From: Thermoplasmata archaeon
Lineage (GTDB): Archaea > Thermoplasmatota > Thermoplasmata > Thermoplasmatales > Thermoplasmataceae
Reading direction: 5' to 3'
NCBI GenBank assembly: GCA_021810045.1
Contig: JAJZJR010000004.1
Coordinates: forward strand, 18,351 to 82,350
Length of the DNA: 64,000 nt
Positions 1 through 20,600 of this stretch are shown one piece after another. Numbering within the stretch: position 1 is the first letter of the stretch; each line of letters starts with the position of its first letter. A program made the position numbers and the translations under genes. The notes beneath the pieces are model-generated. The model did not search any database and was not told where the DNA came from. It worked only from the letters and a program-made list of their open reading frames with translations.

Positions 1-2
1 TC

Positions 3-1031
3 GGGCCGACAGACAGTGGAAAGAGCACATTTCTATTGACACTCAAGGACATTCTTGGGGTAACTAATGTATCCTCGGCAACATTACAACAACTTTCCAA
101 AGCTGACCAGAGGTTCATCACTTCGAAACTGTACAAGAAGCTGGCCAATATCGCACCGGATATGCCAACAAGCTCCCTGAGTGATATCTCTATATTCAAG
201 GGAATCACCGGCAGAGACCTCATACCTGGGGAATTCAAGTACAAACAGCCGTTTGATTTTCAGCCAAGATCCAAACTGCTGTTTTCGGCAAATTCATTGC
301 CCTTTGTAGGCGATGACGAGGAGGCATTTTTCAATCGCTGGGATATAATTGTCTTTCACAAGCCACCTAAGATCGATGCACGACTTCAAGAAAAACTCAA
401 AGAAGAGTCCTCAGGTATTTTCAACTGGGTCATTGAAGGGGCTAGAAGAATAATTGAAAATGGACTGAAGTTCACTGATGCCACACCTACTGCAGAAGCA
501 ATGAGAATCTGGACCAGATCTGCAAATCCAGTGAGGGCCTTCTTTAACGAATGTATTGCAAAGGAAGGCGAGGAAGAGAGGCCAGCTTCAGACTTTTATG
601 ATGCTTATAAACAATACGCGGAGAGATATCACCTGAAATTTGAAGATGAGGATATTTTTGACATTAAGTTCTCCAAGGTCAGCAGAACCAATGTCTTAAA
701 GCATCAACGGAATAACGTGACTCACAAGTACAGAAAGGGTTTGAGAATTCTACCCTTGGAAGATTGGCCAGATTCTGACTCCTCTATTCCTGACGAGTAT
801 ACTGAAGATGAAATGGATTCAGATAAAATATTTGAAAAGGTCAGAAAAGTCTTTGCCGGAACAAGTGAAGTCGCCAGAAAACGCGACAACATTGAAAGAT
901 GGATTGCTTCAGAGAATGGTATATTGATAGAAACCGCTCATAACGTTATTGAGAAGTGGATATCAGAGGGGACAGTCGTCCCTAATGACAGATGCCTGGA
1001 ATTTCCGGAGTGGGATGATTTCAATGCTTGA
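3..1031 (+). CDS. P4/D5-family phage/plasmid primase-helicase, C-terminal NTPase part (5' end cut by window edge)
   Basis: The frame is open from base 3 and reads GPTDSGKSTFLLTLKDILG (Walker A, GxxxxGKS/T) ahead of the tracked ORF start at 36. The following FKGITGRDLIPGEFKYKQPFDFQPRSKLLFSANSLP...FFNRWDIIVF follows the P4/D5 primase C-terminal domain layout. Confidence 0.75.
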   Translation, partial: GPTDSGKSTFLLTLKDILGVTNVSSATLQQLSKADQRFITSKLYKKLANIAPDMPTSSLSDISIFKGITGRDLIPGEFKYKQPFDFQPRSKLLFSANSLPFVGDDEEAFFNRWDIIVFHKPPKIDARLQEKLKEESSGIFNWVIEGARRIIENGLKFTDATPTAEAMRIWTRSANPVRAFFNECIAKEGEEERPASDFYDAYKQYAERYHLKFEDEDIFDIKFSKVSRTNVLKHQRNNVTHKYRKGLRILPLEDWPDSDSSIPDEYTEDEMDSDKIFEKVRKVFAGTSEVARKRDNIERWIASENGILIETAHNVIEKWISEGTVVPNDRCLEFPEWDDFNA

Positions 1032-1353
1032 ACAACGAGGTGCTTATCTTTACAGGAATGGAGATGTTGTGGGTAAACTGGAAAGCCCTCACTGTATTGC
1101 GGTTCGTGATAGAAGACACTACTTCAGGAAGTATGGTGGATTTGCCCTTGCCGTTGAAGCTTATGAATGGCTGCTCAACAAAGGGTTCACTTACTTCCGG
1201 GTGATATATAGGCCTGAAAAGAAAATCATCACATACAGAATTTCAGATTTTGCATCTGGTTACAGAATTGATTACCCTCCGCATGGTGAACAGTATGTGC
1301 TCCCTACGACAACGAGTCTTGAACCTGACGAGAAATCAGGCTTGAATGGGTAG
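1024..1353 (+). CDS. hypothetical protein (109 aa), coupled to primase gene
   Basis: The ATG at 1024 lies inside ATGCTTGA and overlaps the primase stop (1029-1031). The tracked start at 949 would overlap the primase by 83 nt. No family recognised. Confidence 0.4.
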   Translation: MLEQRGAYLYRNGDVVGKLESPHCIAVRDRRHYFRKYGGFALAVEAYEWLLNKGFTYFRVIYRPEKKIITYRISDFASGYRIDYPPHGEQYVLPTTTSLEPDEKSGLNG

Positions 1354-1773
1354 CCTTCTCTGCTTGCCCCCGATGTAGCGCATAGCCATCTGAAATTTCT
1401 CGTCATGATGCTTCGAAAAAATATGGGCAAGCTCATGAACGAGAACCTCCCTAATTTCAATTCTGGTAAGTTTAATAGCATCCTCCCTAACCAAAATGGT
1501 TGACCCTTTGAGCATGGAGAGAATGGACCTATCCCTGAATTTCCTGACCAGCTCAAAATCAATTTCTCCAACAATGTAAAAATTTCCGTTTTTCTTCAGC
1601 TTCAGGAATTCTGATTTTAGGATTCGTATCAGTCTAGTTTTCATATACTCCATGAGAGCGTGTTTATCAAAGGAAAGCGGTACGTAGAGTATGTCACCGG
1701 AGTGTTTTGGTCTTTTCCTCTCGCACCTTACTATTGTTGTAGTCTTTCCTAAAATTATTGCATCAGAATCCAA
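1336..1773 (-). CDS. HExxH zinc-metallopeptidase-like protein (YgjP/DUF45- or SprT-like), distal gene of the type I R-M operon
   Basis: HELAHIFSKHHDEKF motif. The start overlaps the hsdR stop by 11 nt. DUF45-type genes commonly neighbour type I R-M systems. Confidence 0.6.
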   Translation of the reverse strand: MDSDAIILGKTTTIVRCERKRPKHSGDILYVPLSFDKHALMEYMKTRLIRILKSEFLKLKKNGNFYIVGEIDFELVRKFRDRSILSMLKGSTILVREDAIKLTRIEIREVLVHELAHIFSKHHDEKFQMAMRYIGGKQRRLPIQA

Positions 1774-4747
1774 ATGTCTCCCTCAAATTCTTGTATATAT
1801 TCCCGACAACCAAATCTTCTTCTCCAACATCTCTTGGGTTAAGTATTTTGATTGCAGAATATCTTATTGATTTCACAATCTCTTTTCTGTCTATTTTGCG
1901 TACAGTTCTTTCCCCTTTCAGAAGAAGTTTAATGCCTTCTCTGCTGGCCAGATCCTCACAGAATTGATTTAACTTATCATTTCCAATCTTGTCTATTGCA
2001 GTTTTTACGGCCTCTCTGAACGCAGTCTTTATTTCACCTTCGGTTGATTCAGCGGCTTCAATTGAGTCCAGAGTATCCTTTATCGCCTTTATTTCAGTCA
2101 GTATCTCTTCATTTACAGCCTTGGCTCTCATCAATTTCTGGTACGCATTGACTATTCTCTCCAGAAGGCTTGGATATCTGAATCTTCTTCCAGATACATC
2201 AATATGCCAGGTGTTCAAGGCCCTCAAGGCCGATGCATAATCCTTGGTTCTCCCTAAGTTGTTAAGGTATGCTCTGTCTATGGTAAAACTTCCTTTCTTT
2301 TCTACATCGATAAAGAAATTCTCACTTACGATCTTCTTCACTCTTTCATAGGCATCCTGTACCTTCTGCTCATTAACATCCCCCAATTTCAGGTTGTTGA
2401 CATACACACCATAAGCTTTGGCAAGAACTTTGTATCTGTCCATGTGGCCCAACAGGTATGATTTTGCTCTCGGCAGGTTAAGAATTGCCGTGAGTTTCTT
2501 AAAATTCTTTTCAAAGTTTTCTGAAATCTCAGAGTCAGACAGGAGCTTCATCAATTGGTCAAGGTTCTCGTGGCTGTCACTTGAGAAATCAAAATCGCCG
2601 AAGAGTTTATAGGTTTCATTCAGTAATTCAACAAAGTCCTTCTCAATTTCCTCTCTTGATATGACTATGCCACGAATCCCCCCGTCTGATGACATTCCTT
2701 CATATTTTTTTAGGGTCTTGTTGAGGGTTTCAAGCAGATACACATAGTCAATGACATAGCCATAATCTTTTGTACTAAAAGGTCTGTCAGTTCTCCCTAT
2801 GGCCTGCAAAAGGCGTTCCTCAAAGAGGGGTTTGGCGAGATACATTACCCACAGCTTTGAGGAGTCAAATCCCGTAAGAAGCATATCCGTCACTATGAGT
2901 ATCTTTGGGTTTTCAGAGAAATCAAAATTTTCAGCGAATTCTTTGCAGGCTTTCCTGACATCTTTGCCCGTCCTCTTTTCAAGCTCGTCCCTGTATCCCT
3001 TAATGAGATCGGAGACCTCGTTATGTCCAAATGTCATCACAATCTCAGAGGCCTCCGGGGAAAGCAATGTATCAAGTTTCCTTTTGTACATGACACATGC
3101 CTCTCTATCCACTGCCACGAGCATGGCCTTTAGACCCGTGTTGCTGCCTTCAATCTCGCTCCGGAAATGGTTGGCAACATCTCTTGCTATTGTATCGACG
3201 TTTGCCTCCGTTTTATACAGCTCCTTGATTACCCTAATCTTTCTGTTAAGCAGTTCCTTTTCAGGTTCAGATAAATCCTCTGTTTCTTCATCGTGGTCGA
3301 GTGCCTGCTTTATTATCTGGTCTTTAACCTCTGGAATCGCAGCGTTGTATTCATAAGCTATGGGGACAGTGAAGTTGTCATCCTGGGCATCTTTCATGCT
3401 GTATCTGTCCAGGTACAGTTCTTCTGGAGGGCAGAATTCTTCGAAGGTGTTCCTTACCTTCCCCCCAGTGTTCTTTCTTATGGGAGTACCGGTGAATCCG
3501 AAAACAAAGGAGTCTGGAAACGCATTTCTGAAGGTTGCTGCCATCAGACCATACTGTGTTCTGTGGCTCTCGTCGACCAGACAAATTACATTTCTGCCCT
3601 TTATGTAAGAGTTTCCAGCTATGGATTTGAAATTCTCAGGGCTGAACTTCTGGACAGTAACGATGAAGACCCCAGGTTTCCCCTGGCCGTTGTTGTAGTC
3701 AATAAGTTCCGCCAGTTCCGTTGTGTTGTTTATGCTGTGAGTAAGCTCCAATCCCTGTATATCAGAAAATCGTGTTAGAGCCTGATTGTCCAGATCCTTT
3801 CTGTCAACAACAATGAGAAGTGTGGCATCCGGCATCTTCTTCCTTATCTGATATGCTGTGTATGCCATTATCAGTGTCTTACCCGAACCCTGCCAGTGCC
3901 ATATCAATCCGGTTTTGACGGCCTCATCCTGCTTTCTGTCAATATTATCCTCAATTCTTTTGAGAATCTTCTCAGTAGCCCTGAACTGCATGTATCTGGC
4001 CATTATCTTTTCATTTCGGTCACCCTTCTTTCTTATGTGCAGATAATTGGTCAGAATTTTTATGAAATTATCAGGATACAAGGCCCCATATAGCAGTGTT
4101 TCAACCTCATTTTCTGGTGTTGGTTCAAGAGGGTACGAGGTCTTCCATTTTGCCCTGATATCCTCACCCTTCTTATTGAAGAACAGGGGGAAGAGTTCTC
4201 CCTTTACACCGTTGTTTATAACAGCCAATTGCAGGTAGGTGAACAGTTCCCTGACACTTTCCTCATATCCCTTTATCTGGTTATAAGCCAGTTCAAGGGT
4301 GCCCATATTGTAAGGGTTCTTGTTCTCCATAATCACAAGCGGAATTCCATTGACGAACAGTACAACATCAGGTCTCTTGTTGGACTTGCCTTTGACACTA
4401 AACTGATTTGTGACTATGAAGCTGTTATTGTAAATTCTTGACTCGTCAAGTAATTTTACAGTATGAATCTGCTTGTTTTCGTCCACAACGCTAACTCCTT
4501 GTTTCAGGAAGTCCAGAAATTTGGCATTTCCTTCCTGTGATGGGGTCAATTCTTCCAATTTTGAGATTGCATCGGAAATGAGCGACTCTTGAATGGGATT
4601 AATTTTCCTCAGGCTGTTAAGAAGATTCTCCATGAGTAAAAAGACACCATTATTTCTTTCTTCGAGGTCTTCCGGGGAGTTGTAGATCCATCCGTAATCC
4701 TGGAGTTTTCTTATAATCCATTCCTCGTTGGAAGCCTCGCTGACCAT
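1763..4747 (-). CDS. hsdR: Type I restriction enzyme R subunit
   Basis: 994 aa. Helicase motif I is WHWQGSGKT and motif II is LVDESHRTQYG. The start overlaps the hsdS stop (TGATG). Confidence 0.92.
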   Translation of the reverse strand: MVSEASNEEWIIRKLQDYGWIYNSPEDLEERNNGVFLLMENLLNSLRKINPIQESLISDAISKLEELTPSQEGNAKFLDFLKQGVSVVDENKQIHTVKLLDESRIYNNSFIVTNQFSVKGKSNKRPDVVLFVNGIPLVIMENKNPYNMGTLELAYNQIKGYEESVRELFTYLQLAVINNGVKGELFPLFFNKKGEDIRAKWKTSYPLEPTPENEVETLLYGALYPDNFIKILTNYLHIRKKGDRNEKIMARYMQFRATEKILKRIEDNIDRKQDEAVKTGLIWHWQGSGKTLIMAYTAYQIRKKMPDATLLIVVDRKDLDNQALTRFSDIQGLELTHSINNTTELAELIDYNNGQGKPGVFIVTVQKFSPENFKSIAGNSYIKGRNVICLVDESHRTQYGLMAATFRNAFPDSFVFGFTGTPIRKNTGGKVRNTFEEFCPPEELYLDRYSMKDAQDDNFTVPIAYEYNAAIPEVKDQIIKQALDHDEETEDLSEPEKELLNRKIRVIKELYKTEANVDTIARDVANHFRSEIEGSNTGLKAMLVAVDREACVMYKRKLDTLLSPEASEIVMTFGHNEVSDLIKGYRDELEKRTGKDVRKACKEFAENFDFSENPKILIVTDMLLTGFDSSKLWVMYLAKPLFEERLLQAIGRTDRPFSTKDYGYVIDYVYLLETLNKTLKKYEGMSSDGGIRGIVISREEIEKDFVELLNETYKLFGDFDFSSDSHENLDQLMKLLSDSEISENFEKNFKKLTAILNLPRAKSYLLGHMDRYKVLAKAYGVYVNNLKLGDVNEQKVQDAYERVKKIVSENFFIDVEKKGSFTIDRAYLNNLGRTKDYASALRALNTWHIDVSGRRFRYPSLLERIVNAYQKLMRAKAVNEEILTEIKAIKDTLDSIEAAESTEGEIKTAFREAVKTAIDKIGNDKLNQFCEDLASREGIKLLLKGERTVRKIDRKEIVKSIRYSAIKILNPRDVGEEDLVVGNIYKNLRETFGF

Positions 4748-6006
4748 CAGACCTTCACCCTCATCTTTCCAGTCAGGAGATCGCCCATCAGTCTCTGCTT
4801 GATGGTTTCTAAATTTTCCCTCTTCTTGCTTAGAAGGGTTAACTTATCATCTATGCTGGATAGAATCTCAGTGATTTTGTTCTGCTCTGAGATAGGTGGG
4901 ACTGGAAAAGCTAAGCTAAAAAGAGAATCTTTTGGAACTCTCTGTCTTCCCGTTGTCCCAACCATGCTGTCAATAAGCGGCTTCCTAAAGAGGTTTGTTT
5001 TCAAAAGGTAAAATGTAAATAAATTTGTAAGAGAATTTTCAGAGACAATAGGGTATACCTCTGAAGTTGCGAAAGCGTGTCCCGATGGTATATTTGGAAC
5101 AATTCCCTGTTTTCCGTTTTCTACGGAGGGGGTTATTTTTGGGAGAAGTATATCGCCGGGTTCGCAATAGGTTGGAGGTATGACCTCGCCTTCTTTTAGG
5201 GACTTGTATTCACAGTATGTATTCTCGTCAGGAATTAGCTCCATGGGAATAGCATACAACGCATCCACTTCTGCCAGCTTCTTTTTCTTTCGAATTTCTA
5301 GTACTTCACAAAATGGCTTCAGGTCCCATTCTTCAGGTATTTCCCCAATCTCGGTTTCTTTGAATTTTGTGTGTCCTATACCTATAGTAAGAAGTCTCTG
5401 CATTAGCCCCTTCTTTAACTGTTCCGTCAGCGTTATCTGTTCGTTAACCTTCTGGATCGCATCATCTGCTGTTGTAAGGATTTCTGCAATTTTTTGCTGC
5501 TCGTTCAACGATGGACAAGGTATTTGCAAATTCTCTAACGTTGATTTTTTAATGGAAGGCATTGTCGTAATGTTTGATAGAACTTTAAGATCCACTCTGG
5601 AAACAAAGTAATAGTATAGAAATTCATCGTGAAGTCTCCTTGGGACTATACCTGCTACATTATTGTCAAAAGTGGCTTCCACAGAGAGAATTCTGAATTT
5701 ATTGAGATAAACTGCCATTCCAATTTTTGGAAATATGGTAGTGCCTGCAGGAAAAACTTTCGCATGTAACAGTTTGAGTTCTTCTCTTCCAACAAAATTG
5801 CTTGCTGTGTTAACATATTTATTGGACAGGTTCATATCTCCTACCTTTACGAATGGGTAGGTACCTTGATCCTTTCCTTGATATTTTAAAGGAAATCCAT
5901 AACCAGAAACCACATCGGCCACTTCAGAAAGCTTTACAATTCTCCATTCCGGAGGGCCTGTTTTATTAATTGTTAAGTCGTCTCTAGCCCCCTCTGAATT
6001 ATTCAA
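4747..6006 (-). CDS. hsdS: Type I restriction-modification specificity subunit
   Basis: 419 aa with two variable halves, each followed by a conserved helical spacer (LNEQQKIAEILTTADDAIQK and ISEQNKITEILSSIDDKLTLL). It sits between hsdM and hsdR with overlapping junctions. Confidence 0.88.
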   Translation of the reverse strand: MNNSEGARDDLTINKTGPPEWRIVKLSEVADVVSGYGFPLKYQGKDQGTYPFVKVGDMNLSNKYVNTASNFVGREELKLLHAKVFPAGTTIFPKIGMAVYLNKFRILSVEATFDNNVAGIVPRRLHDEFLYYYFVSRVDLKVLSNITTMPSIKKSTLENLQIPCPSLNEQQKIAEILTTADDAIQKVNEQITLTEQLKKGLMQRLLTIGIGHTKFKETEIGEIPEEWDLKPFCEVLEIRKKKKLAEVDALYAIPMELIPDENTYCEYKSLKEGEVIPPTYCEPGDILLPKITPSVENGKQGIVPNIPSGHAFATSEVYPIVSENSLTNLFTFYLLKTNLFRKPLIDSMVGTTGRQRVPKDSLFSLAFPVPPISEQNKITEILSSIDDKLTLLSKKRENLETIKQRLMGDLLTGKMRVKV

Positions 6007-7546
6007 TATAACCTAGCTCCCTGAGATAACCGTTGAGCTTGTACTCAACTTCAGTAAGTTCGATATTTATTTCATTAAGCCCCTCAATAGTGCCTGAAAT
6101 ATCAATTGAATTTTCATCGTTAACTGGGTTTACATAAGTGCTGACATTCAAATCGTAATCTTTTGCTTTTATTTCCTCCACACTAACAACTTTTGAAAAC
6201 CCCTCTTTGGATTCGAAGTCTGTATAGGTTGAAACTATGTTATTGATATTTTCTTCGTTTATTATATTCAATTTCTTGATATTTTGGTGCTTCCCGAACT
6301 CTTTAGAAGCATCTATAAACAAAATATCATCTCTGTGGCTCTCTTGTTTGTTCTTATTGAAAGTGAGGACAACTCCAGCTGCTCCGGTATTGTAGAATAT
6401 TTTGTCTGGCAACAGAATAACGGACTCCAGAGTCTTCTCATCAACTACCTTTTTTCTTATGACTTTCTCGGAATTTCCCCTAAATAGTACTCCCTGGTCC
6501 ATGATAACTGCCACTTTTGATTTCGAAGTGTAAAGCATATGCTGTATCCATGCCCAGTCTCCGTACCTCTGAGGAACAAAACCATCGGAGTATCTATCCT
6601 TGAATTCTGCCTGTTTCAGCGTTTCTTCCCCATAGCCTTTTTGGGCCCACGGTGGATTGGCCAGGACAAGATCGAAAGGCCTCAACCCAGAAGCTGTTTT
6701 AAATTTAGGGTATAGAAGGCTGTCACCTACTTCAAGATGAGATTCAGAAATCCCATGGAGAATTGTGTTCATTTTTGCCAGAGCATAGGTCGTTGGACTT
6801 CTCTCTTCACCATAAAGGCCGACACGATTTGCACCATCTTCGCCGATTTTCCGTTTTACATGTTCATATGCCTCAATGAGCATACCGCCAGAACCGCACG
6901 CAGGATCGTAAACGCTCATTCCAGGCTGCGGGTCCAGTATGTCAACCATAAGCCTGACAACCTCTCTAGGTGTGTAGACTTCACCTTCCTTGGCCTTTTC
7001 GGGTGCGAATCTCATGAGTATGTGTTCGTATGCATCTCCCATGGCATCGCCTTCAATACACCTGTTTGAAAAGGTGTATTTGTCAAAAAGAGCGATTAAC
7101 TGCTCAAGGAGGATTCTGTTTTCCCTGCTCTTCGTGAAATCAATGAAGTCTATCCTGTTTATGACCCCATCAAGCTCTTTGTTTTCCTTTGCAATTTCAT
7201 TTATGGCCTTTGACAGGTTTTCCGTGAGCTTTTCCTTATCCTTTCTTATGTTATCCCAGAGCACATTCTCTGGAACCATGAAGCTGTGGTATTCCTCTCT
7301 CACTGCACGTTTGATTGCTTCAGATTCATCAATTCCCGTCTCCTCCATGATTTCAGTCTTTGCGTCCTCTACTTCCTCTTTCCATCTGTCACTCAACCTT
7401 TTTATGAACAACAAAACCAGAATGTACTTGTAATCCACTGATGTCCTTATCAAATCTGCAGCATCATCCACCAGTTTGATAAGGTCAGCTTTTGTGACTT
7501 TTCCAAAGCAATCAACCATAGCCATAGAATTCAGAGAGATAAACAT
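5999..7546 (-). CDS. hsdM: Type I R-M N6-adenine DNA methyltransferase subunit
   Basis: AdoMet motif I is VYDPACGSGGML and catalytic motif IV is LANPPW. The N-terminal HsdM helical domain is present, and the stop overlaps the hsdS start by 8 nt. Confidence 0.92.
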   Translation of the reverse strand: MFISLNSMAMVDCFGKVTKADLIKLVDDAADLIRTSVDYKYILVLLFIKRLSDRWKEEVEDAKTEIMEETGIDESEAIKRAVREEYHSFMVPENVLWDNIRKDKEKLTENLSKAINEIAKENKELDGVINRIDFIDFTKSRENRILLEQLIALFDKYTFSNRCIEGDAMGDAYEHILMRFAPEKAKEGEVYTPREVVRLMVDILDPQPGMSVYDPACGSGGMLIEAYEHVKRKIGEDGANRVGLYGEERSPTTYALAKMNTILHGISESHLEVGDSLLYPKFKTASGLRPFDLVLANPPWAQKGYGEETLKQAEFKDRYSDGFVPQRYGDWAWIQHMLYTSKSKVAVIMDQGVLFRGNSEKVIRKKVVDEKTLESVILLPDKIFYNTGAAGVVLTFNKNKQESHRDDILFIDASKEFGKHQNIKKLNIINEENINNIVSTYTDFESKEGFSKVVSVEEIKAKDYDLNVSTYVNPVNDENSIDISGTIEGLNEINIELTEVEYKLNGYLRELGYIE

Positions 7547-7690
7547 AATAAAATAATATTAAAGTTACGTGACAAATCGGACATGGTTACCATTGAATCC
7601 GAACACATGTATTACAGACACAATAATAATGTGGATTAGGAAGAATGATTTGCAAAATTTATAAATATGTAAGAATGTATTATTTTTCTA

Positions 7691-8245
7691 ATGACCACAT
7701 GCTGTCACTGTGGGAGAATTCTATACTATCGCCAAAGTGTGAAGAGGCATAGCGGTTCATGGTGTTATTATAACAAAGGTGCTTGCAGTTTTGACTACAA
7801 TTATGCACATGATGAGTCAGAGGAAGGGCAAGAAGACTTCAAGAGAAAACTAATCAAGGGAATCGCCAAAGGAGCCATCATCGGTGCAGCACTAGGTGTT
7901 ACGTGCTTGTTGGTGCACGTCGCTTGCATTATTACTGCATTCATACACCAGCATTATTATTTTAAGTCAGCAGCTTCATCAGTATATTCTGTTCTGAAAA
8001 ACAAGTCTGAACACGATAATCATCCAGTCAAGGAAGCTGCAATATCCGGAACACTGGAAACATCAAATGCTGCCGGTACCGATGCGCTATCTTCTAAGCT
8101 CGGAGCTAAATTTGCTGAAATTGCCCACGCAAGGTCCGGAGCATCATTATCTTGGGCTGGAGAAATAGGAAAAGAAACAGGCAGAGGAATGCTTGAACAG
8201 GGTTCTAGTGCCGTATTTGACTGGGGCTCAAAGGTAGTTGTGTGA
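7691..8245 (+). CDS. hypothetical zinc-ribbon membrane protein
   Basis: N-terminal CCHCG...WCYYNKGAC cysteine cluster, then one clear hydrophobic helix (AIIGAALGVTCLLVHVACIITAFI), then a Ser/Ala/Gly-rich tail. No family recognised. Confidence 0.45.
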   Translation: MTTCCHCGRILYYRQSVKRHSGSWCYYNKGACSFDYNYAHDESEEGQEDFKRKLIKGIAKGAIIGAALGVTCLLVHVACIITAFIHQHYYFKSAASSVYSVLKNKSEHDNHPVKEAAISGTLETSNAAGTDALSSKLGAKFAEIAHARSGASLSWAGEIGKETGRGMLEQGSSAVFDWGSKVVV

Positions 8246-8550
8246 TAAAAATGGAAGATACCAATGATAGAGATATGAATTTCTCAGAAAATTTTGTTAT
8301 AATATCATCCAGAAAGACTGATTTTCTGACCCGGTTCATTGAGAAACTGAAATCTGAAAGTGAAGAACGCATACAACCAGACACCATTTCGGAAGTTGTG
8401 CATATAGTAGCTTCTCTGGACCCTTTGCTGTTTGTTAGTCAAAAAGAAATCAAAGAAGGCCATCTTCACCTCGACACCAAGCTTGAAGACCTTGATAGAG
8501 AAAAGATCGGAGAGGAGATAGCCAAAAAGATGAACGGGTTTACTGAATAG
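8242..8550 (+). CDS. hypothetical acidic protein
   Basis: The ORF abuts and overlaps the preceding gene (GTG at 8242 or ATG at 8251). Composition is charged. No family recognised. Confidence 0.4.
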   Translation: MIKMEDTNDRDMNFSENFVIISSRKTDFLTRFIEKLKSESEERIQPDTISEVVHIVASLDPLLFVSQKEIKEGHLHLDTKLEDLDREKIGEEIAKKMNGFTE

Positions 8551-8595
8551 GTAGATACAACCCAGGAATCAATCTAGTAAGTGAATACTATCCTA

Positions 8596-8654
8596 ACCCC
8601 TCAACAACCTGGAAAGCCTTTGATATAGCCTTCCAGTGAAAGATGTTGAGGGGT
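8596..8654. repeat. stem-loop 1: 11-bp perfect arms ACCCCTCAACA / TGTTGAGGGGT, 37-nt spacer with an inner 9-bp imperfect stem
   Basis: Read directly from the sequence. The inner pair is CTGGAAAGC / GCCTTCCAG with one mismatch. Confidence 0.8.
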
Positions 8655-8722
8655 GGCATTTCATTGTTATTCTATGATGCCTAAATGTTTTATTTTGCTC
8701 CAGGAAACAACAGTAGGAAAGC

Positions 8723-8782
8723 ACCCCTCGACATGTTGGTACAGAGACGCTATTACACTGATTCAGAGAGTTGTCGAGGGGT
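8723..8782. repeat. stem-loop 2: 11-bp perfect arms ACCCCTCGACA / TGTCGAGGGGT, 38-nt spacer
   Basis: Read directly from the sequence. The arms differ from stem-loop 1 at one base pair, and the change is compensatory (A:T to G:C). Confidence 0.8.
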
Positions 8783-9066
8783 CATCTTGACTGATTCAAC
8801 TCACATTTCACTATGTCATTTTTTACGGTCATTTTTCAATTTTCTCCAAAGTGGTAAGTCACAGATGACTTTGGAAGAACTGCAAGGTCTAAGAGCATCA
8901 CTTTCGCATGAATACTACACTTTCATAGGTTTAAGGTGAAAGGAAAATTACCTTACAAAATGCCTATTTTTGATGAAATTTATACCTATAGAACAGATAT
9001 ATGATTTATAGATGACCACTATGTGATTTTGTAAATGTTAATATAGATGATTTTAGTTAGTTCTTC

Positions 9067-9720
9067 ATGTCAAAATCCAGGCACTATCCTCCTTCTTATA
9101 TGAGATATCAGATCGAACATCCTCCAGTTACAGTTCACCTAAGCAAGAAGGTCAAGGAGAACTTAGATGCTGTCAGGGGAAACAGGTCATACGCGGAAGT
9201 AATCAATGAAATTCTTGATGGAACGTTCAACCTGGAAGATGAGGTTAAGAGACTCCCTCTAAACGAATCTGTAATTTCATACGCACGCGGATTTGAAGAG
9301 GCAGAGGAGCGTTACGCGCAACTGGGCACCTGTCTCAAATGCAAAGGCGAATACAACTACCTCTGGAAAGACGGAAAATGTGACAAATGCCATAAGAAGA
9401 CTGAAGGCCCGGATTTCTCACATTTCAGGGACAAGATACCAATCACATGGATTGATGAGAGCGACTTTGAAAAGGCAAAGATAAAACTTCCCAATCTTGA
9501 GAAGATATCGTATGAAAACGGATACAAACGTGGCTCCAAAGAAGGAAGGGATGCAGGTTACAAGTTAGGTTATGATGAAGCAGAAAAAAAGTTCAAGATA
9601 ACCTATCCCTGTGCCAGGTGTGGAAAGTCTATGGAAATGCACCCAGGTGATGAGGACCATAAAGAGATGATGACATATATGAAGGACCATGAATGGCACC
9701 ATTCTAAATGTTCAAGTTAG
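9067..9720 (+). CDS. hypothetical RHH-like / multi-zinc-ribbon protein
   Basis: The N-terminus VTVHLSKKVKENLDAVRGNRSYAEVINEIL looks like a CopG/RHH strand-helix-helix. It is followed by CLKCK...CDKCH and CARCG...HHSKC cysteine pairs. Confidence 0.5.
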   Translation: MSKSRHYPPSYMRYQIEHPPVTVHLSKKVKENLDAVRGNRSYAEVINEILDGTFNLEDEVKRLPLNESVISYARGFEEAEERYAQLGTCLKCKGEYNYLWKDGKCDKCHKKTEGPDFSHFRDKIPITWIDESDFEKAKIKLPNLEKISYENGYKRGSKEGRDAGYKLGYDEAEKKFKITYPCARCGKSMEMHPGDEDHKEMMTYMKDHEWHHSKCSS

Positions 9721-9869
9721 TAGATGAGACATTATTTAGCTCAAGGGAATGAGTTTAATCGGCGAAATCATTTGTGCAACACTAAATCGTTCCTCACGAA
9801 TGGTGCGCAATAATCTATAATTTAGGCCAGTTTCGTTCTTTCTTTAACTGTAAAAACAAAAGTTAATAC

Positions 9870-11108
9870 TTATCGAGTACGAATATAATTAAGCCATTCT
9901 CCGAGGGTGGGTTTTACTTCCCTGACATACTCCCTTACCTCGCCTTGCTGGGCGAATTTTTTACTGAAGTGAATTTCATCTCCACTTCTTTCAAGCTCAT
10001 GAAGCTTAAGGGCATAAGAGAGAGTTTCTGACATCTCTTCATCCTCCAAGATTTCCTTTATCGTATAAGTCTGAACTATGGTTAATATTAGTTCTTTAAG
10101 TTCAGTAGATCTAAGACTCCTTATAGATTCTAATAAACCTTCTATTCGTTCTTTATCTCCTAAAATGGCTTTAAGGTGACTTATAGTGAGAACATTCCCT
10201 TCAAATGCCTTGATTACTTGTTCTTTTTTTGTGATAATATCACCATTTCCATTTTGCTTGGGTGGAGGCATTCTTCCGCTTCCAAGCGCCACTACATCGC
10301 TCATGAATATTTCTTGGCCATGTGGCCCGCTGAGTGACTTGTACCGGCTTTCTCTTTCAATTCCAGTGGTTATTATAGCGACATCTAGGTCCTTAAAAAC
10401 ACGAATCAAATCCCTTAAAATTGGCTGCATTTTTACAGGGCTACTGTAATGCAATCCAATGGCCGGAATGTGCCCTGAACTCACTGAGGATTTCAAAAAA
10501 GGCGTAACATATTGAAAAGCAGTAAAATCCTCATCGGACGGGTCCAGAAAAATCATAGGATAGGGTGCATTGGATTCTCTGTCGATAACGTATCTCTGCC
10601 ATAGATCTTTTATATCTTCTATTGGTATAAAATGCGGAAAAGTAAGTCCCCAGAACTTTGCTCCAGTGTTTGAGGCTATCATTGCAGAATAATCATAAAT
10701 TCTCTCATATTCTTCTTTTCTTGAAGCTAATACATGTTTTGCTTTATTCTGTGGTCTGACAATGAATCCGTGCAATGGTGAGTATTTCATTTTAGACATA
10801 TGTCGGTCGACTGAGGCATTCAGGCTTACATAACCATTCGTACCCCGCAATAACTTCCTTAGCTCTGTTTCTTTAAGGGTCTTGTCTACTATCGAGACGT
10901 CAGATGAGATCTTCACTATTTCTTTCAATTTTGAATTAGCATTGTATTCTACTGTTGTTGCAGACCTAGTTGGAGATGTTATCTGCTTTCCATCTACGTA
11001 AATAGTTCCCGACCTAAAATAATATGGAACCGACCCCACGTAGTTAATATCTGCACCAGGGGACTCCAATTTGAAATTTATATCTGACAAATCAATCACC
11101 ACGCTCAC
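9870..11108 (-). CDS. hypothetical 412-aa protein, distal gene of a 3-gene cassette (candidate toxin/effector)
   Basis: Long ORF whose start overlaps the upstream Panacea-like gene by 17 nt. No motif I can assign. Confidence 0.6.
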   Translation of the reverse strand: MSVVIDLSDINFKLESPGADINYVGSVPYYFRSGTIYVDGKQITSPTRSATTVEYNANSKLKEIVKISSDVSIVDKTLKETELRKLLRGTNGYVSLNASVDRHMSKMKYSPLHGFIVRPQNKAKHVLASRKEEYERIYDYSAMIASNTGAKFWGLTFPHFIPIEDIKDLWQRYVIDRESNAPYPMIFLDPSDEDFTAFQYVTPFLKSSVSSGHIPAIGLHYSSPVKMQPILRDLIRVFKDLDVAIITTGIERESRYKSLSGPHGQEIFMSDVVALGSGRMPPPKQNGNGDIITKKEQVIKAFEGNVLTISHLKAILGDKERIEGLLESIRSLRSTELKELILTIVQTYTIKEILEDEEMSETLSYALKLHELERSGDEIHFSKKFAQQGEVREYVREVKPTLGEWLNYIRTR

Positions 11109-11613
11109 GTAACTTGTTTTTTCGGGAAAGATACCTATCTCTCACCGCTGAATTTACAGTATAGTCTGGAAACTCTTCGTATACAACTTTCATGATTCCA
11201 TCAGTGCCTTTTTGATCGAGTCTGATTCTAAACTCAACGAGATCCTCCCATACTTCAGGCTTATATTCTTCTCTCACTTTCTCTAGTACATTGTGTCCTC
11301 GACCGTTTAGCCCGATTTTGTTTCCATCGATGGAAAGGACTCCATCACCATGAAGCTCTCTGAGTTTGTTTGCAAGATATCTGCTGTATGGCCCATATCT
11401 ATGCGGGTAGAATGAGATATCAGGGGGATTTATCAGCTTACTCCTCATAGTTTTTAGAAAAAGGAATGCTTCTTTCACGATTAGCGTCCTTCCCCTTATC
11501 GGGATTCCTGTTGTTCCAAGTAACATAACAAGGAAATTCTTAGTTCTATCCTCTAATATCTCTTCCCCTATTTTCTCTATATATTCGTCATAATACTTGG
11601 GGTCGATAAGCAC
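11092..11613 (-). CDS. Panacea/DUF4065 (SocA/GepA)-like protein with C-terminal wHTH-like segment (putative antitoxin)
   Basis: RGRTLIVKEAFLFLKT....FYPHRYGPYSRYLANKLRELHGDGVL resembles the DUF4065 pattern (KLQKLLYF ... F..W.YGP). This is recognised by eye only. Confidence 0.5.
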   Translation of the reverse strand: MLIDPKYYDEYIEKIGEEILEDRTKNFLVMLLGTTGIPIRGRTLIVKEAFLFLKTMRSKLINPPDISFYPHRYGPYSRYLANKLRELHGDGVLSIDGNKIGLNGRGHNVLEKVREEYKPEVWEDLVEFRIRLDQKGTDGIMKVVYEEFPDYTVNSAVRDRYLSRKNKLRERGD

Positions 11614-11657
11614 ACGACCCTCATCGGTTTCATAGGCTGGAATACCAAAATAGTTTG

Positions 11658-12167
11658 TTAATTTCGTGTCATTCCCTCCAATTTTACATAAGCTGATTCA
11701 TCCATTCCAACAAAGCATGTCAATACATATTGCTTTCTTCTGATTTTAATTCTTACATCGAATTCGAAAGGATAAACTGGGATCTCAAACCTTCTCAGTT
11801 CAGCTGATAAACTTCTTGGAAGCCTCTTCTTGAGTTCTGGGAAAAGAAGCGTCATATCACTTAGTGCAGTTATTCTGTAGTAATCTGAGAAAAACTGATC
11901 CCCCATCCAAACTCTGTGCCCGGATATCATAATTGGCTCATTAGTGTCGAACGAATTGCCACAGTCGTGGCAAGCCCACCTCTCTTTTCTTGGAATTATT
12001 AATCCAGAATTTATTTCCTCACCTTCAATGTGGCTCCTGTTTATCTTTATCCTGGAATCGAAACCTGCCTCAGTATGAACCTCATTAGAATTCTTTTTCT
12101 CGAAATTCTCCTGAAACCGTTCAGTTATGTACTCGGTTCTTCCAGAACCACAAATTGGGCAAATCAA
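11658..12167 (-). CDS. hypothetical zinc-ribbon protein, first gene of the 3-gene cassette
   Basis: MICPICGSG ... WACHDCGNS forms a CxxC...CxxC ribbon. It lies 44 nt upstream of the Panacea-like gene on the same strand. Confidence 0.5.
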   Translation of the reverse strand: MICPICGSGRTEYITERFQENFEKKNSNEVHTEAGFDSRIKINRSHIEGEEINSGLIIPRKERWACHDCGNSFDTNEPIMISGHRVWMGDQFFSDYYRITALSDMTLLFPELKKRLPRSLSAELRRFEIPVYPFEFDVRIKIRRKQYVLTCFVGMDESAYVKLEGMTRN

Positions 12168-12502
12168 CTTCTTTACCTCGTCCTTCAGGGAAGTATTCTC
12201 GATGTCTGAATTCTTTATGAGTATGAAATATATTCTAACCTCAGACTGCGTTTTTTGCAGGATTGGAAATTATGCTTTAGAATTTCTAAGGCAACTTTTC
12301 GAACACAGTCATATGTTTTAGTGATGTTCATTTATAAATATTATCATATGTATTATAGAGGCAAGAATGAGATTAGTTCAGAAGTTGCAGATTATACTCA
12401 TTAAGAAACAAAGTGAAAAAGTAATTCACATAATGGGGGGCGATAAGGCTTACACTTGAAAAGGAGCCGCTGACTTGAATATATTTAAATGCATCATTCA
12501 AC

Positions 12503-12787
12503 ATGTGCATGCACATGCAAAGGAATCTGACATTGAAAGTTGATGATGAACTCGTAGAAAAGGCACACAGGTACGGCATCAACATCTCTAAATTCCTTGA
12601 ATATGCACTGGACAACGCTTTCAAGCGTGGTTTTGAAGATCTCTCACAGAATCAGGAAAATTCAGAATGGACCGGTCGGGATTTGAACCCGAGGCCTCCT
12701 GCTTGCAAAGCAGGCGATCTACCGCTGATCTACCGGCCCTTCCCAATAAAGGGATCAGGGAATCGGTTCTATAGTATTAATTTTTGA
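12503..12787 (+). CDS. RHH (CcdA/VapB/CopG-like) small protein whose 3' part runs antisense through tRNA-Ala
   Basis: RNLTLKVDDELVEKAHRYGINISKFLEYALDNAFKR is a typical archaeal RHH antitoxin/regulator sequence. An AT-rich TATA-like ATATTTAAAT lies at 12481-12490. There is no stop before 12787, so the tail WTGRDLNPRPPACKAGDLPLIYRP is the antisense translation of the tRNA. Start could be ATG 12503, 12509 or 12515. Confidence 0.5.
   Translation: MCMHMQRNLTLKVDDELVEKAHRYGINISKFLEYALDNAFKRGFEDLSQNQENSEWTGRDLNPRPPACKAGDLPLIYRPFPIKGSGNRFYSINF
12668..12739 (-). tRNA. tRNA-Ala (anticodon UGC)
   Basis: Reverse complement: GGGCCGG TA GATC AGCGGTA GATC G CCTGC TTTGCAA GCAGG AGGCC TCGGG TTCAAAT CCCGA CCGGTCC A. 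This gives a full cloverleaf with a G3:U70 pair (the alanine identity element). CCA is not encoded. Confidence 0.9.
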
Positions 12788-12878
12788 CGATCAATCTTTA
12801 TGAGGTAATTTGATAAGATAACCCCAACCAGCCGAACAAACATAGTTTATTAATCCAAAATAGAAATCACATTGTCAT

Positions 12879-13616
12879 ATGTTTCTTGTCAAGCTTGGTG
12901 GCAGTGTCATAACAGTCAAGGGAAGATACCGTTATTTCAGGCCCAAGGCTGTACAGGAAATAATAGGGGAACTGAAGAAGAAGGGCGAACCCTTTGTACT
13001 CGTACATGGCGGAGGATCCTTTGGGCACATCAAGGCAAAGGAATATGGAATTCCCGGAGCGATTACAGAAGTCAGGAAAATGGGTTATTCCATCATCCAC
13101 CGAGACATGGTTGAACTGAACCAGAGGATCATAAATTCTCTTCTTGATAACAAAATAAGGGGAGTTGGTGTGCCTCCAGCCTCCTTTAACGGGGATCTGG
13201 AGAAAATAACACAGGCAATGAAAGAGCACATGGAGGCAGGGCTTTTTCCTGTTTCATTTGGGGATGTTTACATAAACAAGGCGGAGAACAGGTTTGAAAT
13301 CGTGTCAGGAGATGATCTTGTTCTAGAACTTGCCAGGGTTCTCAGGCCAAGGGAAGTATATTTCCTGACAGATGTGGATGGAATATATGACAGGAACCCA
13401 AAGAAGCATCACGATGCTGTACTTCTTAGAGAGTTGAATGACACTGCAACCTTTGAGCATGTGGGCACTGATGTCACCGGCGGAATGCTCAAAAAAGCCA
13501 GTACAGTAAGAGATATTGCAGGACTGGGAACTACAGTTTATGTCCTAAATGGCAATGTTCCCTCAAGGTTAAACCAGATCAATTCAAAGAACTTCATTGG
13601 AACAGTGGTTAAATGA
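12879..13616 (+). CDS. isopentenyl phosphate kinase (amino-acid-kinase fold)
   Basis: MFLVKLGGSVIT...VLVHGGGSFGH...VSGDD...TDVDGIYDRNP pattern. It sits immediately upstream of type-2 IDI with an ATGA overlap. Confidence 0.85.
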   Translation: MFLVKLGGSVITVKGRYRYFRPKAVQEIIGELKKKGEPFVLVHGGGSFGHIKAKEYGIPGAITEVRKMGYSIIHRDMVELNQRIINSLLDNKIRGVGVPPASFNGDLEKITQAMKEHMEAGLFPVSFGDVYINKAENRFEIVSGDDLVLELARVLRPREVYFLTDVDGIYDRNPKKHHDAVLLRELNDTATFEHVGTDVTGGMLKKASTVRDIAGLGTTVYVLNGNVPSRLNQINSKNFIGTVVK

Positions 13617-17663: not shown

Positions 17664-20600
17664 ATGGGAATAATAGTTAGAATATCCGGTCCAGTAGTGA
17701 TAGCAGAAGACGTTGAAAACGCCAAGATGTTTGACGTGGTCAGAGTTGGAGAACTGGGTCTAGTAGGAGAAATTATCAGGATTATTGGAAACAGGTCAAC
17801 AATCCAGGTTTATGAGGATACAAGTGGTATCAGGCCTGGAGAAAAGGTGGAAAACACAAACAGGCCACTCTCCGTGGATCTTGGTCCAGGACTGCTTACA
17901 TCAATTTATGATGGAATACAGAGGCCTCTGGACGTAATCAGGGCCAAATCAGGTGATTTCATTCAGAGAGGTTTCACAGCCTCCCCTCTCGACGAGGAAA
18001 AGGTATGGGAATTCAAGCCACTCGCCAAAAAGGGCGACGATGTGGTCACCGGCCAGATAATTGGAACAGTTCCTGAGACAGGAATCATTGAGCACAAGGT
18101 CATGGTTCCATATGGTGTTTCAGGAAAGATTGCAGATATCAAGGAAGGCAAATTCAAGGTATCAGATGTTATTGCAATAATTGACACAGGATCACAAAAG
18201 GTTGAAGTCAAGCTTAAGCAGGAATGGCCTGTGAGGATTCCAAGGAAAGTTCTCAGAAAGCTTCCTCCTGATATCCCACTTATTACGGGACAGAGAGTCA
18301 TCGATACATTCTTCCCTGTGGCCAAAGGTGGAACTGTTGCTGTACCAGGGCCCTTCGGATCTGGAAAATGTGTTACAGGCGACACGCCTGTTCTGCTCGG
18401 AGATGGTTCCATAAGAGAAATAAAGGATCTGTATGAAGAGGGCCTGAAAACCGGCTTACGCATGAAGCTGAAGGATGAAGAGTACCTGTCCCTTCAGAAG
18501 CCAATTGAATTGATGTCTTTCCACGAAGGGAAAATTCAGAAGAGCACTTCCTCCATGCTGTACAAAGGCAAGTCAGATACTGTTGTTAAGGTAAGGACAA
18601 GAACCGGAAGGGAGGCAAGAATAACCCCGGTACATAAACTATTCAAACTGTCAGAAGAGGGGGAAATAGTGGAAACAGAAGCCAGAGAACTTTCTCCCGG
18701 CGATTATATTGTTTCTGCCAAGGCCACTTCAGTGAAAGGCAGGAATAAGAAAATTGATATTTACGGACTTGGAAACCTCAGGGTACTGGATGAGGATATC
18801 CGGGAAGAGGTTGCAGAACTCCTGAAACTCTCTTACCAGAAAGGTATCCACATTGAGCTTCCTTCATCAGTTAAACACAGCTTATCAAGATCTGAGAAGA
18901 GGATGTCCCCAAGACTTTCCTGGGTGAAGGAAATCTATTCCAAAATGGGAAAAACTCCTCCCAATCCACGGAAGCTTGTTGGCGATCGTTCAAGTAACCC
19001 TGTATCAATACCAGAATCCGTTAGTGAAGAACTGGCTGAATTCCTTGGCTATTATATTTCTGAAGGTTACATAAGGGAAAAGGGAACAGTTGTCTTCACA
19101 AATGAAGATGAACAGCTGCTTGACAGATTTACTGTACTGGCAAAGACCCTATTTTCCCTGGACGGAATCAGGGAAATACAGAAAGGAAAAGTGCCAAATG
19201 TTCTCCTTCACAGCAGAGTGCTTGTCCAGTTCCTCGAGTACCTGGATACAGGAGAGAATGCATTCAGCAAAAAGATCCCTGAAATTATACTAAAATCCAG
19301 CGATTCTGTTGTGTCTTCACTCCTGACATCGTACTTCATCGGCGATGGATCATTTTCCAGGGAGAGCGTTGAATTCTCCACTGCAAGTAAATGGCTGTCA
19401 GTTCAGTTATCCTATGTACTTACAAGATTTGGCATAATAAACACAAGATCCGTAAAGAATGTCAATGAGAATGAGTACCACAGGATTTATGTTAGAGGCA
19501 AGACAAACGTTTCGAAGCTGAGCAGACTGATGAAGCCTGTACATTCTAAAATCCAGAAGATTTATTCATATTCTGAATCATCAGGATCCGCATATAATTC
19601 CATAGACATTGTTCCACTGTCGCCATCCTATGTAGGATCTCTATACAGGAGATATACAAGTTATTCTGAGTTGCTCGATGAGGGCATAGAGATATCCAAC
19701 TACATTGGAAACAGGGAAAATATGGGGATCGAAACATTCAGAAGATTCTCTGAGGTAATCAGCAAATCAGCAGGCTCTCAGATTCTTGAAGAACCAATAA
19801 GCCAGCTTTCCGAATCGCTAGATTACATATTTTTTGACAGGATCCTGTCAATTGAGGAAGAAGCGGGACCCTTTGATGTGTACGATGTCACAGTCCCAGA
19901 TTCAGGAATGAATTTTGTGGGTGGATATGGTGGAATAATTCTTCACAACACAGTGGTTCAACACCAATTGTCAAAATGGGCAGATAGTGATATTGTCGTT
20001 TACGTAGGATGTGGAGAAAGGGGGAATGAGATGACTGAAATTCTCACATCGTTCCCTGAGCTCACCGACCCTAAATCTGGCAAGCCTCTCATGGAACGCA
20101 CTGTCCTCATCGCAAACACATCCAACATGCCTGTGGCAGCAAGAGAAGCAAGTATCTACACAGGAATCACGATCGCGGAATATTACAGGGATATGGGATA
20201 TAACGTTGCCCTCATGGCCGACAGTACCTCAAGATGGGCAGAGGCACTGAGAGAAATTTCAGGAAGGCTTGAGGAAATGCCTGGCGAAGAAGGATATCCA
20301 GCATATCTTGGAAGAAGACTTTCGGAATTCTATGAAAGATCAGGAAATGCAATTGTGGTATCAAATGATGAGAGAAACGGTTCCATCACAATTGTAGGTG
20401 CAGTATCTCCTCCAGGAGGAGACACATCTGAGCCGGTTTCACAGAACACCCTTAGGGTTACAAGGGTATTCTGGGCACTTGATTCATCGCTTGCATCGAG
20501 AAGGCATTTCCCTTCAATCAACTGGCTGAACAGCTATTCACTTTATCAGGACGACCTCAGGAAATGGTTCGAGGAAAACGTGACCAGGGACTGGGGAGAA

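Follow-up and report, generated by a model that had tools for sequence, protein, structure and literature searches.

A conserved archaeal three-gene operon that links a distant Panacea-superfamily protein to a predicted TGT-fold partner: a candidate toxin–antitoxin or defence module

Introduction

What might be the function of a compact three-gene cassette that lies beside a type I restriction–modification (R-M) system and a tRNA gene in the genome of a Thermoplasmata archaeon (GenBank assembly GCA_021810045.1, contig JAJZJR010000004.1)? The cassette is carried on a stretch of 64,000 nucleotides (positions 18,351 to 82,350 of the contig, hereafter ‘the window’; all coordinates below are those of the window), and we refer to its genes as A, B and C. 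An initial interpretation of this DNA without database searches, the sequence-only reading, saw in B a resemblance to the Panacea/DUF4065 antitoxin domain and proposed that the cassette is an uncharacterised toxin–antitoxin (TA) or defence module. Panacea antitoxins neutralise many unrelated neighbouring toxins via direct binding (PMC8832971), and a partner of such a protein is therefore a candidate toxin. Here we report that A, B and C form a conserved operon found so far in archaea, that B is, as judged by profile comparison, a distant Panacea relative, and that C appears to be a strongly diverged protein of the tRNA-guanine transglycosylase (TGT) fold. We tentatively favour, at somewhat less than an even chance, a tripartite, Panacea-type module that is TA-like or acts by abortive infection and has a new effector of the TGT fold, a function that is predicted from the genes and their surroundings.

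The question is of general interest, as archaeal immunity beyond CRISPR and R-M is little charted. The cassette represents a compact, conserved and tractable candidate archaeal defence or TA system, which, save for a partial match of B, is invisible to Pfam, to DefenseFinder-type models and to PADLOC.

Results

Gene A (12167..11658, minus strand, TTG start) encodes a protein of 169 aa with the motifs C3-P-I-C6-G and C66-H-D-C69-G (CPICG and CHDCG), gene B (11613..11092, minus strand, GTG start) encodes 173 aa as listed, with the core RGRTLIVKEAFLFLKT...FYPHRYGPYSRYLANKLRELHGDGVL, and gene C (11108..9870, minus strand, GTG start) encodes 412 aa. The list of open reading frames (ORFs) agrees with the sequence-only reading in the lengths and common strand of the three genes, in the 44-nt spacing between A and B and in the 17-nt overlap between B and C. 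Since the three are conserved together on other contigs (amino acid identity to the window proteins of 45–71% for C, 49–80% for B and 35–73% for A), they are not chance ORFs. Close homologues are few – 11 for B, four for C and three for A in word-indexed searches – and always co-occur, with the A-B-C trio found in five different genomic contexts among close relatives. The same three-gene architecture is kept even where the identity of C is only ~20%.

The order of a small protein with two CxxC knuckles, a B-like protein and a C-like protein recurs in 12 lineages from three archaeal groups, the family members being labelled by source name as Thermoplasmata, Archaeoglobus sp. and Ca. Nitrosocosmicus. 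All distant C-family members with an inspectable contig have a B-like gene (HMM E-values of 1e-20 to 1e-58) immediately upstream, so that the anticipated linkage of C homologues to antitoxin-like genes was seen on every contig inspected, and B overlaps or abuts C in 12/12 lineages. The small protein that precedes the B-like gene has two CxxC knuckles in most lineages, while one is evident in the shorter calls of loci L032 and L035 (L numbers denote individual loci used for comparison). No bacterial carrier of the trio was seen, and pattern scans detected no copy in IMG/VR viral contigs and none in the GTDB species representatives (two scans); this absence fits a rare, sporadic, horizontally moving module. 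We conclude that A, B and C constitute a real, conserved and translationally coupled operon, a self-contained and horizontally mobile three-gene unit so far seen in archaea only. Given how tightly the genes are coupled, with both the B/C and the A/B reading frames overlapping or abutting, the three proteins probably act as a complex.

The sequence-only reading could not place C in any family, and at the level of sequence matches C is indeed elusive: we detected no match in Pfam, NCBIfam, PADLOC or PHROGs. An exhaustive HMMER search with the C profile over 1.84 billion representative proteins yielded 56 clusters at E<1e-3, with proteins of ~385–425 aa that align over the full length at ~20% identity. 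The 51 C-family members gave no Pfam match and no meaningful PADLOC match, and searching the C-family profile against PDB sequences produced none above chance. Structure prediction, on the other hand, does place the protein. While an AlphaFold2 (AF2) model from four sequences was unusable (predicted local distance difference test, pLDDT, of 41), its replacement, built from the 51-sequence alignment, has a pLDDT of 90.7 and a pTM of 0.90, and shows three N-terminal β-strands, a (β/α)8 barrel and a helical C-terminal domain (residues 309–411). When this model was compared to the PDB with Foldseek, the top 11 matches were all TGT enzymes, from bacteria, archaea, mouse and human (E-values of 2.8e-9 to 1.5e-5, probability 1.00, TM-scores of 0.44–0.55), with unrelated TIM barrels starting at an E-value of 2e-4; a Foldseek search of the BFVD viral library returned nothing below 1e-3. 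The predicted fold is thus a TGT-like TIM barrel, and to this extent the family placement of C has moved beyond the sequence-only reading.

Profile comparison with hhalign does not recover this relationship. The C family aligns to E. coli TGT and to a five-sequence TGT profile with probabilities below 1%, and a forced global alignment was uninformative. The sole local hhalign alignment pairs C residues 30–66 with residues 11–47 of E. coli TGT, sharing R..G...G.(I/V).TP, in the topologically equivalent N-terminal segment. Invariant in the C family are P46, H263, D271, E371, S375, E378 and Y394, and near-invariant are R32, R48, P119, P156 (T in the window protein), D189 (45/51), R252 (50/51) and S260. 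In the predicted model the conserved polar residues R48, D189, R252, S260, H263 and D271 are located at or just after barrel strands. Mapped by strand order rather than by superposition, D271 (EIFMSD271VV) falls on the last barrel strand, like the TGT nucleophile D264 (DMFD264CV, E. coli), while the ends of β3 and β4 – again by strand order only – carry Q/R-P119 and P156 in place of the Asp residues of E. coli TGT (catalytic D89 and base-reading D143). The window C protein is devoid of cysteines and no Cys column is conserved in the family; C therefore lacks the TGT zinc site (CxCxxC...H). C thus appears to be a strongly diverged, enzyme-like protein of the TGT fold, with an active site that, as modelled, is remodelled around D271, H263 and R252. 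The lack of a Pfam TGT match, the hhalign probability below 1%, the missing zinc site and the sporadic, mobile distribution together show that C is not the housekeeping archaeosine TGT, in line with the earlier expectation that it is no housekeeping enzyme.

The second question is whether B is indeed related to Panacea. The hmmscan search against PF13274 (SocA_Panacea, formerly DUF4065) that the sequence-only reading had proposed gave no match even at E<1, and B misses the Pfam gathering threshold of 25.7 bits; within the B-family alignment 4/18 sequences match PF13274 at E≤1, at least three of which are non-cassette relatives. While a direct domain match is therefore lacking, remote homology stands, as indicated by hhalign and by common PADLOC regions. 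The B family aligns to WP_050049445 – a SocA-annotated, bona fide Panacea protein that itself passes PF13274 (E 6e-10) – with a probability of 96.0% (E 4.3e-9, 65 columns, B residues 27–99), as compared to 1.6% for the negative control, a canonical 105-aa PadR. Using B as a tblastn query, we detected haloarchaeal plasmid proteins annotated as PadR/HTH (E 4e-4, 75% coverage) as well as a weak match to a protein annotated as a SocA-domain antitoxin. The haloarchaeal group, which serves as an intermediate, aligns to the B family with 98.9% probability (E 3e-17), and a second hhalign comparison of intermediates gave 96.8%. These haloarchaeal intermediates score around the threshold on PadR (27–30 bits), and two of the three are sub-threshold on PF13274 (~21 bits) over nearly the full model (positions 1–96 and 1–109 of 113).

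B matches PADLOC PDC-M19A (E 4.7e-12) and PHROG 24871 (E 3e-9). Two PADLOC regions are matched in common by the B-like proteins, by the haloarchaeal group and by the bona fide SocA protein: the first ~130 positions of PDC-M19A and the C-terminal, non-macrodomain part of DarG. All of these proteins except the SocA protein also match the C-terminal extension of one type I S-subunit model (Specificity_I PDLC03184, ~430–550 of 554). This pattern suggests that Panacea-like domains may be fused to several defence proteins. The conserved core of B reads (R/K)(L/I)xKxxFL ... F.P..YGP(Y/F)S..(L/I)...L..L...G.I and contains the recognition helix and wing of a winged helix (FYPHRYGPYSRYL...L..L...G), which accounts for the weak matches to PadR, HTH_45 and HemN_C; across the family, such weak winged helix-turn-helix (wHTH) matches extend to CggR_N. 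The wHTH, which the sequence-only reading had taken for a separate domain following the Panacea domain, is the core of the domain itself. The C-terminal region carries a second conserved motif, LDQKGTDGIMKVVYEEFPDYTVNS (VYExxPxYTxNS). The suggestion that B is not an ordinary PadR-type regulator held up, with no Pfam match to PadR (PF03551) in addition to the negative hhalign control, and comparison of the B profile to PDB sequences yielded chance matches at best. On these profile comparisons B is a distant protein of the Panacea (SocA/DUF4065) superfamily that is set apart both from ordinary PadR proteins and from DUF4065 as defined by Pfam.

A protein identical to B is labelled ‘YwgA’ in IMG; literature searches on YwgA returned nothing relevant. 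On the haloarchaeal plasmids (L020, L022 and L023) the B-like protein is preceded by a protein of ~245–251 aa, which in L020 combines a TrmB HTH with a weak PLD-like match; a DUF6338 gene comes next in both L022 and L023. The two genes may represent a further conserved pair of the Panacea type.

Gene A encodes a split zinc ribbon, in which C3xxC6 and C66xxC69 are separated by a variable, charged insert of ~55 aa, and a conserved C-terminal domain of ~95 aa (QF.SDY.R.T...D...LF ... Y.LTC ... YVKLEG..R). As the sequence-only reading had it, A belongs to no assignable family: beyond zinc-knuckle-level matches nothing was found in Pfam, NCBIfam or the PDB, the C-terminal domain having no match in any of the three, and nothing informative was found in PADLOC or PHROGs. 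The A orthologues (35–73% identity) are always the first gene of the operon, and a small protein with two CxxC motifs also heads the operon in remote lineages, where sequence similarity to A is lost. A looks truncated in L004, and so does C in L010; we considered them as pseudogenes and rejected this, as the shorter forms reflect differences in start-codon calling.

The A/B junction (11614..11661, minus strand) is unusual. The 44-nt spacing is correct for the listed ORFs but does not hold as a non-coding gap, since the frame of B runs on upstream. It remains open to the A stop codon, which it overlaps in the pattern N-T-R-A in 11/11 lineages examined (the window, L001, L005, L008, L010, L013, L016, L024, L025, L032 and L035), and it encodes an N-terminal extension of B. 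The junction codon is GTG, CTG or ATA in three lineages each, GTA in one and TTA in the window (11661..11659), the latter not being a canonical start. The 16 codons in question, which read T N Y F G I P A Y E T D E G R and precede the first canonical B start, are conserved as protein: the 16-residue extension is kept across the Thermoplasmata clade (the window, L001, L008, L005, L016, L010 and L013), with the codons differing synonymously between lineages, e.g. GGT/GGG/GGA, CCA/CCG/CCT and CGT/AGG. In L001 and L008, initiation at the first canonical start would remove a further 45 conserved B residues. As the extension is conserved as protein with synonymous changes, the 44-nt spacing is probably translated, that is, probably coding, and B is probably ~190 aa rather than 173 aa long. 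The arrangement suggests that B is made either by reinitiation at the A stop on a near-cognate codon or through a frame change that gives an A-B fusion; no classical slippery heptamer is evident at the junction. Either route, if true, would be an unusual mechanism for setting the dose of an antitoxin, and makes the junction a test case for non-canonical translational coupling in archaea.

The neighbourhoods of the trio, taken as ~8 kb, consist mostly of genes for R-M, defence or mobile elements. Type I R-M genes are found in the window, L001 and L008; KwaA, an MTase (methyltransferase)+PDDEXK pair and MmeI-like enzymes in L013; HEPN_Swt1 and an Eco57I-like enzyme in L016; a PrimPol-helicase, an Apyc1-like metallo-β-lactamase (MBL) protein, HEPN_Swt1 and SNF2-NOV_C in L005; a NOV_C protein in L010 and L011; AbiJ in L034; AbiE, an integrase beside the trio and a series of small genes, as is typical of integrated elements, in L037; and HicA and TnpB in L032. 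In the window, Pfam matches identify a complete type I R-M system (HsdM, 7546..5999; HsdS, 6006..4747; HsdR, 4747..1763), and a tRNA-Ala gene lies at 12668..12739 on the minus strand, which substantiates the earlier description of the surroundings. The R-M genes are flanked by the C-terminal region of a D5-like primase-helicase fragment (DUF5906/Pox_D5; 36..1031, plus strand) and a SprT-like (SprT/WLM-like) metallopeptidase (1336..1773, minus strand), both identified by Pfam. The GC content is 0.385–0.40 over ~5–13 kb as compared to 0.44–0.47 further on. The downstream genes encode isopentenyl phosphate kinase, IDI-2 and an A-type ATPase. The cassette thus lies in an island of low GC content that adjoins tRNA-Ala and is probably an integrated element; a search of positions 1–13000 of the window for an att-like direct repeat of the tRNA-Ala end gave none. 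The whole of the first 12.6 kb beside tRNA-Ala resembles part of an integrated mobile element that runs past the window start.

Discussion

Under the reading that we tentatively favour, C would be a toxic or antiviral effector that targets N-glycosidic bonds in nucleic acids and thereby removes or swaps bases of tRNA or DNA. B would bind C directly and keep it inactive, as PanA does for PanT and DarG for DarT, and may also autoregulate the operon via its winged-helix core, whereas A would serve as an accessory subunit, sensor or nucleic-acid-binding partner that sets the timing of C release. Together, the three would make up a tripartite system of the TA-like or abortive-infection kind, carried by defence islands and integrated elements. 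That the cassette is a TA or defence module of some kind is plausible, and fits both the operon structure and the neighbourhoods. We consider doubtful the most specific version of the model, in which C founds a hitherto unrecognised transglycosylase-fold branch, known so far from archaea only, and serves as a toxin or antiviral effector that cuts or swaps tRNA or DNA bases, restrained by a Panacea-type antitoxin and controlled by a zinc-ribbon sensor, with B being produced via near-cognate reinitiation (TTA, CTG, ATA, GTA) or as an A-B fusion.

By analogy, the cassette would work most like a tripartite Panacea-type TA module. As in PanA-PanT pairs, B is a remote homologue of a PF13274 protein, its gene lies directly upstream of, and overlaps, the gene of an unrelated and larger enzyme, the whole is a small mobile module, and in 12/12 lineages B is located within 100 nt of a conserved partner in a two-to-three-gene operon, the arrangement used to recognise such pairs in PMC8832971, where three-gene PanAT variants with accessory genes are also on record. 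Unlike in PanA-PanT, B misses the Pfam threshold and neutralisation is predicted here; the B partner is a ~400-aa TIM barrel of the predicted TGT fold, and no such PanT was found in the searched literature; the third, zinc-ribbon gene is always present; and the carriers seen are all archaeal. From these comparisons, the cassette would be a PanAT-like module in which the effector has a new fold, the third gene is obligatory and the range is archaeal, its function being predicted.

Several points weigh against this interpretation. B lies below the PF13274 threshold, and since PadR-type wHTH models also pick up its relatives, it could be a DNA-binding regulator and nothing more. At ~400 aa, C is large for a TA toxin. 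The connection of C to TGT is drawn from a predicted structure, with hhalign failing to support it, and the placement of D271 at the TGT nucleophile position follows from the order of strands in the model. While an orphan antitoxin beside a degraded toxin is a common trace of toxin loss in TA systems, no orphan B beside a degraded C was seen. The neighbourhoods of L025 and L036 have no recognisable defence genes. Finally, modification would be an equally possible activity for a TGT-fold enzyme that has DNA-binding partners.

The latter possibility deserves to be spelled out. In a nucleic-acid modification module similar to DpdA, C would swap a base for a modified one, such as preQ0, in DNA or tRNA, with the winged-helix B and zinc-ribbon A acting as targeting subunits, and the mark would protect the element or its host from restriction or label self. 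TGT is the closest fold to C, DpdA-type homologues of TGT depend on partner proteins for the DNA modification that they carry out in Dpd systems and phages, the trio rides mobile elements (D5-like helicase in the window, PrimPol in L005, integrase in L037), and all carriers seen are from archaea, which make preQ0 for archaeosine. This scenario is nevertheless weakened by the lack of deazaguanine and Dpd genes nearby (no queC, queD, queE, folE, DpdB or DpdC among the Pfam-annotated neighbours in 12 contexts), by the remodelled pocket of C, with zero cysteines, no TGT zinc site and – by strand order – no acidic residue at the β3/β4 Asp positions, and by the antitoxin-type ancestry of B, the relatives of which are antitoxin-type domains. 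Furthermore, no restriction partner is conserved beside the trio, and the IMG/VR pattern scan found no copy in viral contigs. We regard it as unlikely. Alternatively, the trio could be mobile-element cargo with no role in conflict, B being a PadR/wHTH autoregulator, C a TIM-barrel protein with a non-nucleic-acid substrate and A a small zinc-binding partner. The weak wHTH-family matches across the B family are compatible with this, as are the TM-scores of only ~0.5 to TGT, with other TIM barrels next at E ~1e-4, and the neighbourhoods without defence genes; yet the PadR control is negative as compared to 96% for the bona fide Panacea protein, the top 11 structural matches are all TGT with the next folds four to five orders of magnitude worse in E-value, C has a TGT-like N-terminal β-sheet and TP motif, and R-M, HEPN, NOV_C and Abi genes recur beside the trio in most contexts. 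We consider pure cargo improbable.

A further idea comes from type IV CBASS (cyclic-oligonucleotide-based anti-phage signalling system), by analogy with which C would attach a base to A, B or another protein as a regulatory mark. A preprint describes a TGT-family enzyme that has been remodelled so that it acts on the N-terminus of a protein (bioRxiv 10.1101/2025.04.06.647259); the active site of C likewise appears remodelled, and the N-terminal extension of B is unusually conserved. Against such Cap10-like nucleobase–protein conjugation stand the lack of a CD-NTase or a QueC-like Cap9 nearby and the absence of PADLOC matches between C or its family and any known system component, and, the idea being one of analogy, we deem it highly improbable.

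How, then, does a Panacea-type module with a TGT-fold effector relate to systems already described? TGT-family enzymes have a precedent in defence in the form of DpdA, Cap10 and the BRC systems. As compared to the TGT superfamily (bacterial TGT, ArcTGT, DpdA and Cap10), which supplies the best structural match, C shares the N-terminal β-sheet, the TP motif that comes next, at the first barrel strand, and an invariant Asp on the last barrel strand, at the place of the TGT nucleophile as mapped by strand order. It differs in having no Pfam TGT match (hhalign <1%), no zinc site and no Asp at β3/β4, in its other helical C-terminal domain with the invariant E371, S375, E378 and Y394, and in having neither deazaguanine synthesis genes nor DpdB/Cap9 partners nearby. 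Dpd and phage DpdA clusters are set apart by their DpdB/DpdC or folE, queC, queD and queE genes, and type IV CBASS by CD-NTase and QueC-like Cap9, which are absent from all neighbourhoods, with C having no PADLOC match.

On the B side, DarT-DarG is similar in that the B family, its haloarchaeal relatives and the SocA protein align to positions ~145–285 of the 329-position DarG profile, outside the macrodomain; the C-terminal part of DarG contributes to DarT binding. The likeness ends there, as B has no macrodomain, C is not an ADP-ribosyltransferase and the DarG matches are weak (E 1e-5 to 6e-3). Similarly, B matches positions 22–135 of the 294-position PDC-M19A, a component of the unvalidated multi-gene PADLOC candidate PDC-M19 (E 4.7e-12; relatives E 1e-16), but only the first ~130 positions match, while A and C match no PADLOC model; the searched literature held nothing on PDC-M19. 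As judged by these comparisons, the cassette is not a Pfam-level member of DUF4065 or TGT/DpdA, nor is it Dpd, type IV CBASS or PADLOC PDC-M19.

A viral relative of B is ORF159a of fusellovirus SSV4 (NC_009986, L019, 2387..2866), also present in SSV3 and SSV5. It aligns to the B family with an hhalign probability of 99.1% (E 1e-18, 140 columns, for SSV4; tblastn identity of 36%). Unlike B, it is virus-encoded, has no A-like or C-like neighbour and does not have the C-terminal VYExxPxYTxNS motif. ORF159a could serve the virus as a regulator or as a decoy antitoxin that counters C-type effectors of the host, and a B-like fusellovirus gene hints at viral counter-measures.

The searched literature contains no description of the C family or of a TGT-fold partner for Panacea, and searches on TGT-fold toxins returned nothing relevant. 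Should the TGT-fold effector reading prove true, C would be the first TGT-fold toxin and the cassette, once dissected, the first such Panacea-type system in archaea, extending the list of Panacea partners both to a new fold and to archaea. If C acts on nucleic-acid bases, the TGT superfamily would gain an effector role beyond tRNA modification, DpdA and Cap10.

Additional features of the window

A 217-aa protein with several CxxC pairs (four CxxC) is encoded at 9067..9720 on the plus strand, converging on gene C. We considered this zinc-ribbon gene as a fourth component of the cassette and dropped it, as it adjoins the trio in just two other contexts, L001 (65% identity) and L005 (48%). In L005, a 478-aa Cys-rich protein is inserted between the 217-aa homologue and C. 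Two further plus-strand genes (7691..8245 and 8242..8550) make up a conserved pair that could be placed in no family and have L001 counterparts with 85% and 82% identity, respectively; the 184-aa product of the former has a Cys-rich N-terminal segment and hydrophobic helices, and the 102-aa product of the latter is acidic.

On the other side of the cassette lies a CcdA-like ORF (12503..12787, plus strand; PF07362, E 4.9e-6, residues 8–44), which runs into the tRNA-Ala gene on the opposite strand. The syntenic locus L001 has a 90-aa CcdA-like gene after a 52-aa ORF. The CcdA-like ORF may be part of another small TA-like pair that is divergently oriented relative to the cassette. A 27-nt AT-rich repeat (ATTTATAAATAT...ATGTATTAT) is present in two copies with 78% identity, at 7657..7683, just upstream of the 184-aa gene at 7691, and at 12330..12356, in the intergenic spacer that separates the cassette from the CcdA-like ORF; by its appearance it looks like a common TATA-box promoter element. 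Finally, comparison of L001 (1..1442) and L008 (934..2691) revealed that the catalytic subunit of the A-type ATPase carries a LAGLIDADG intein in L001 and L002 (1111 aa) and none in L008 (585 aa).

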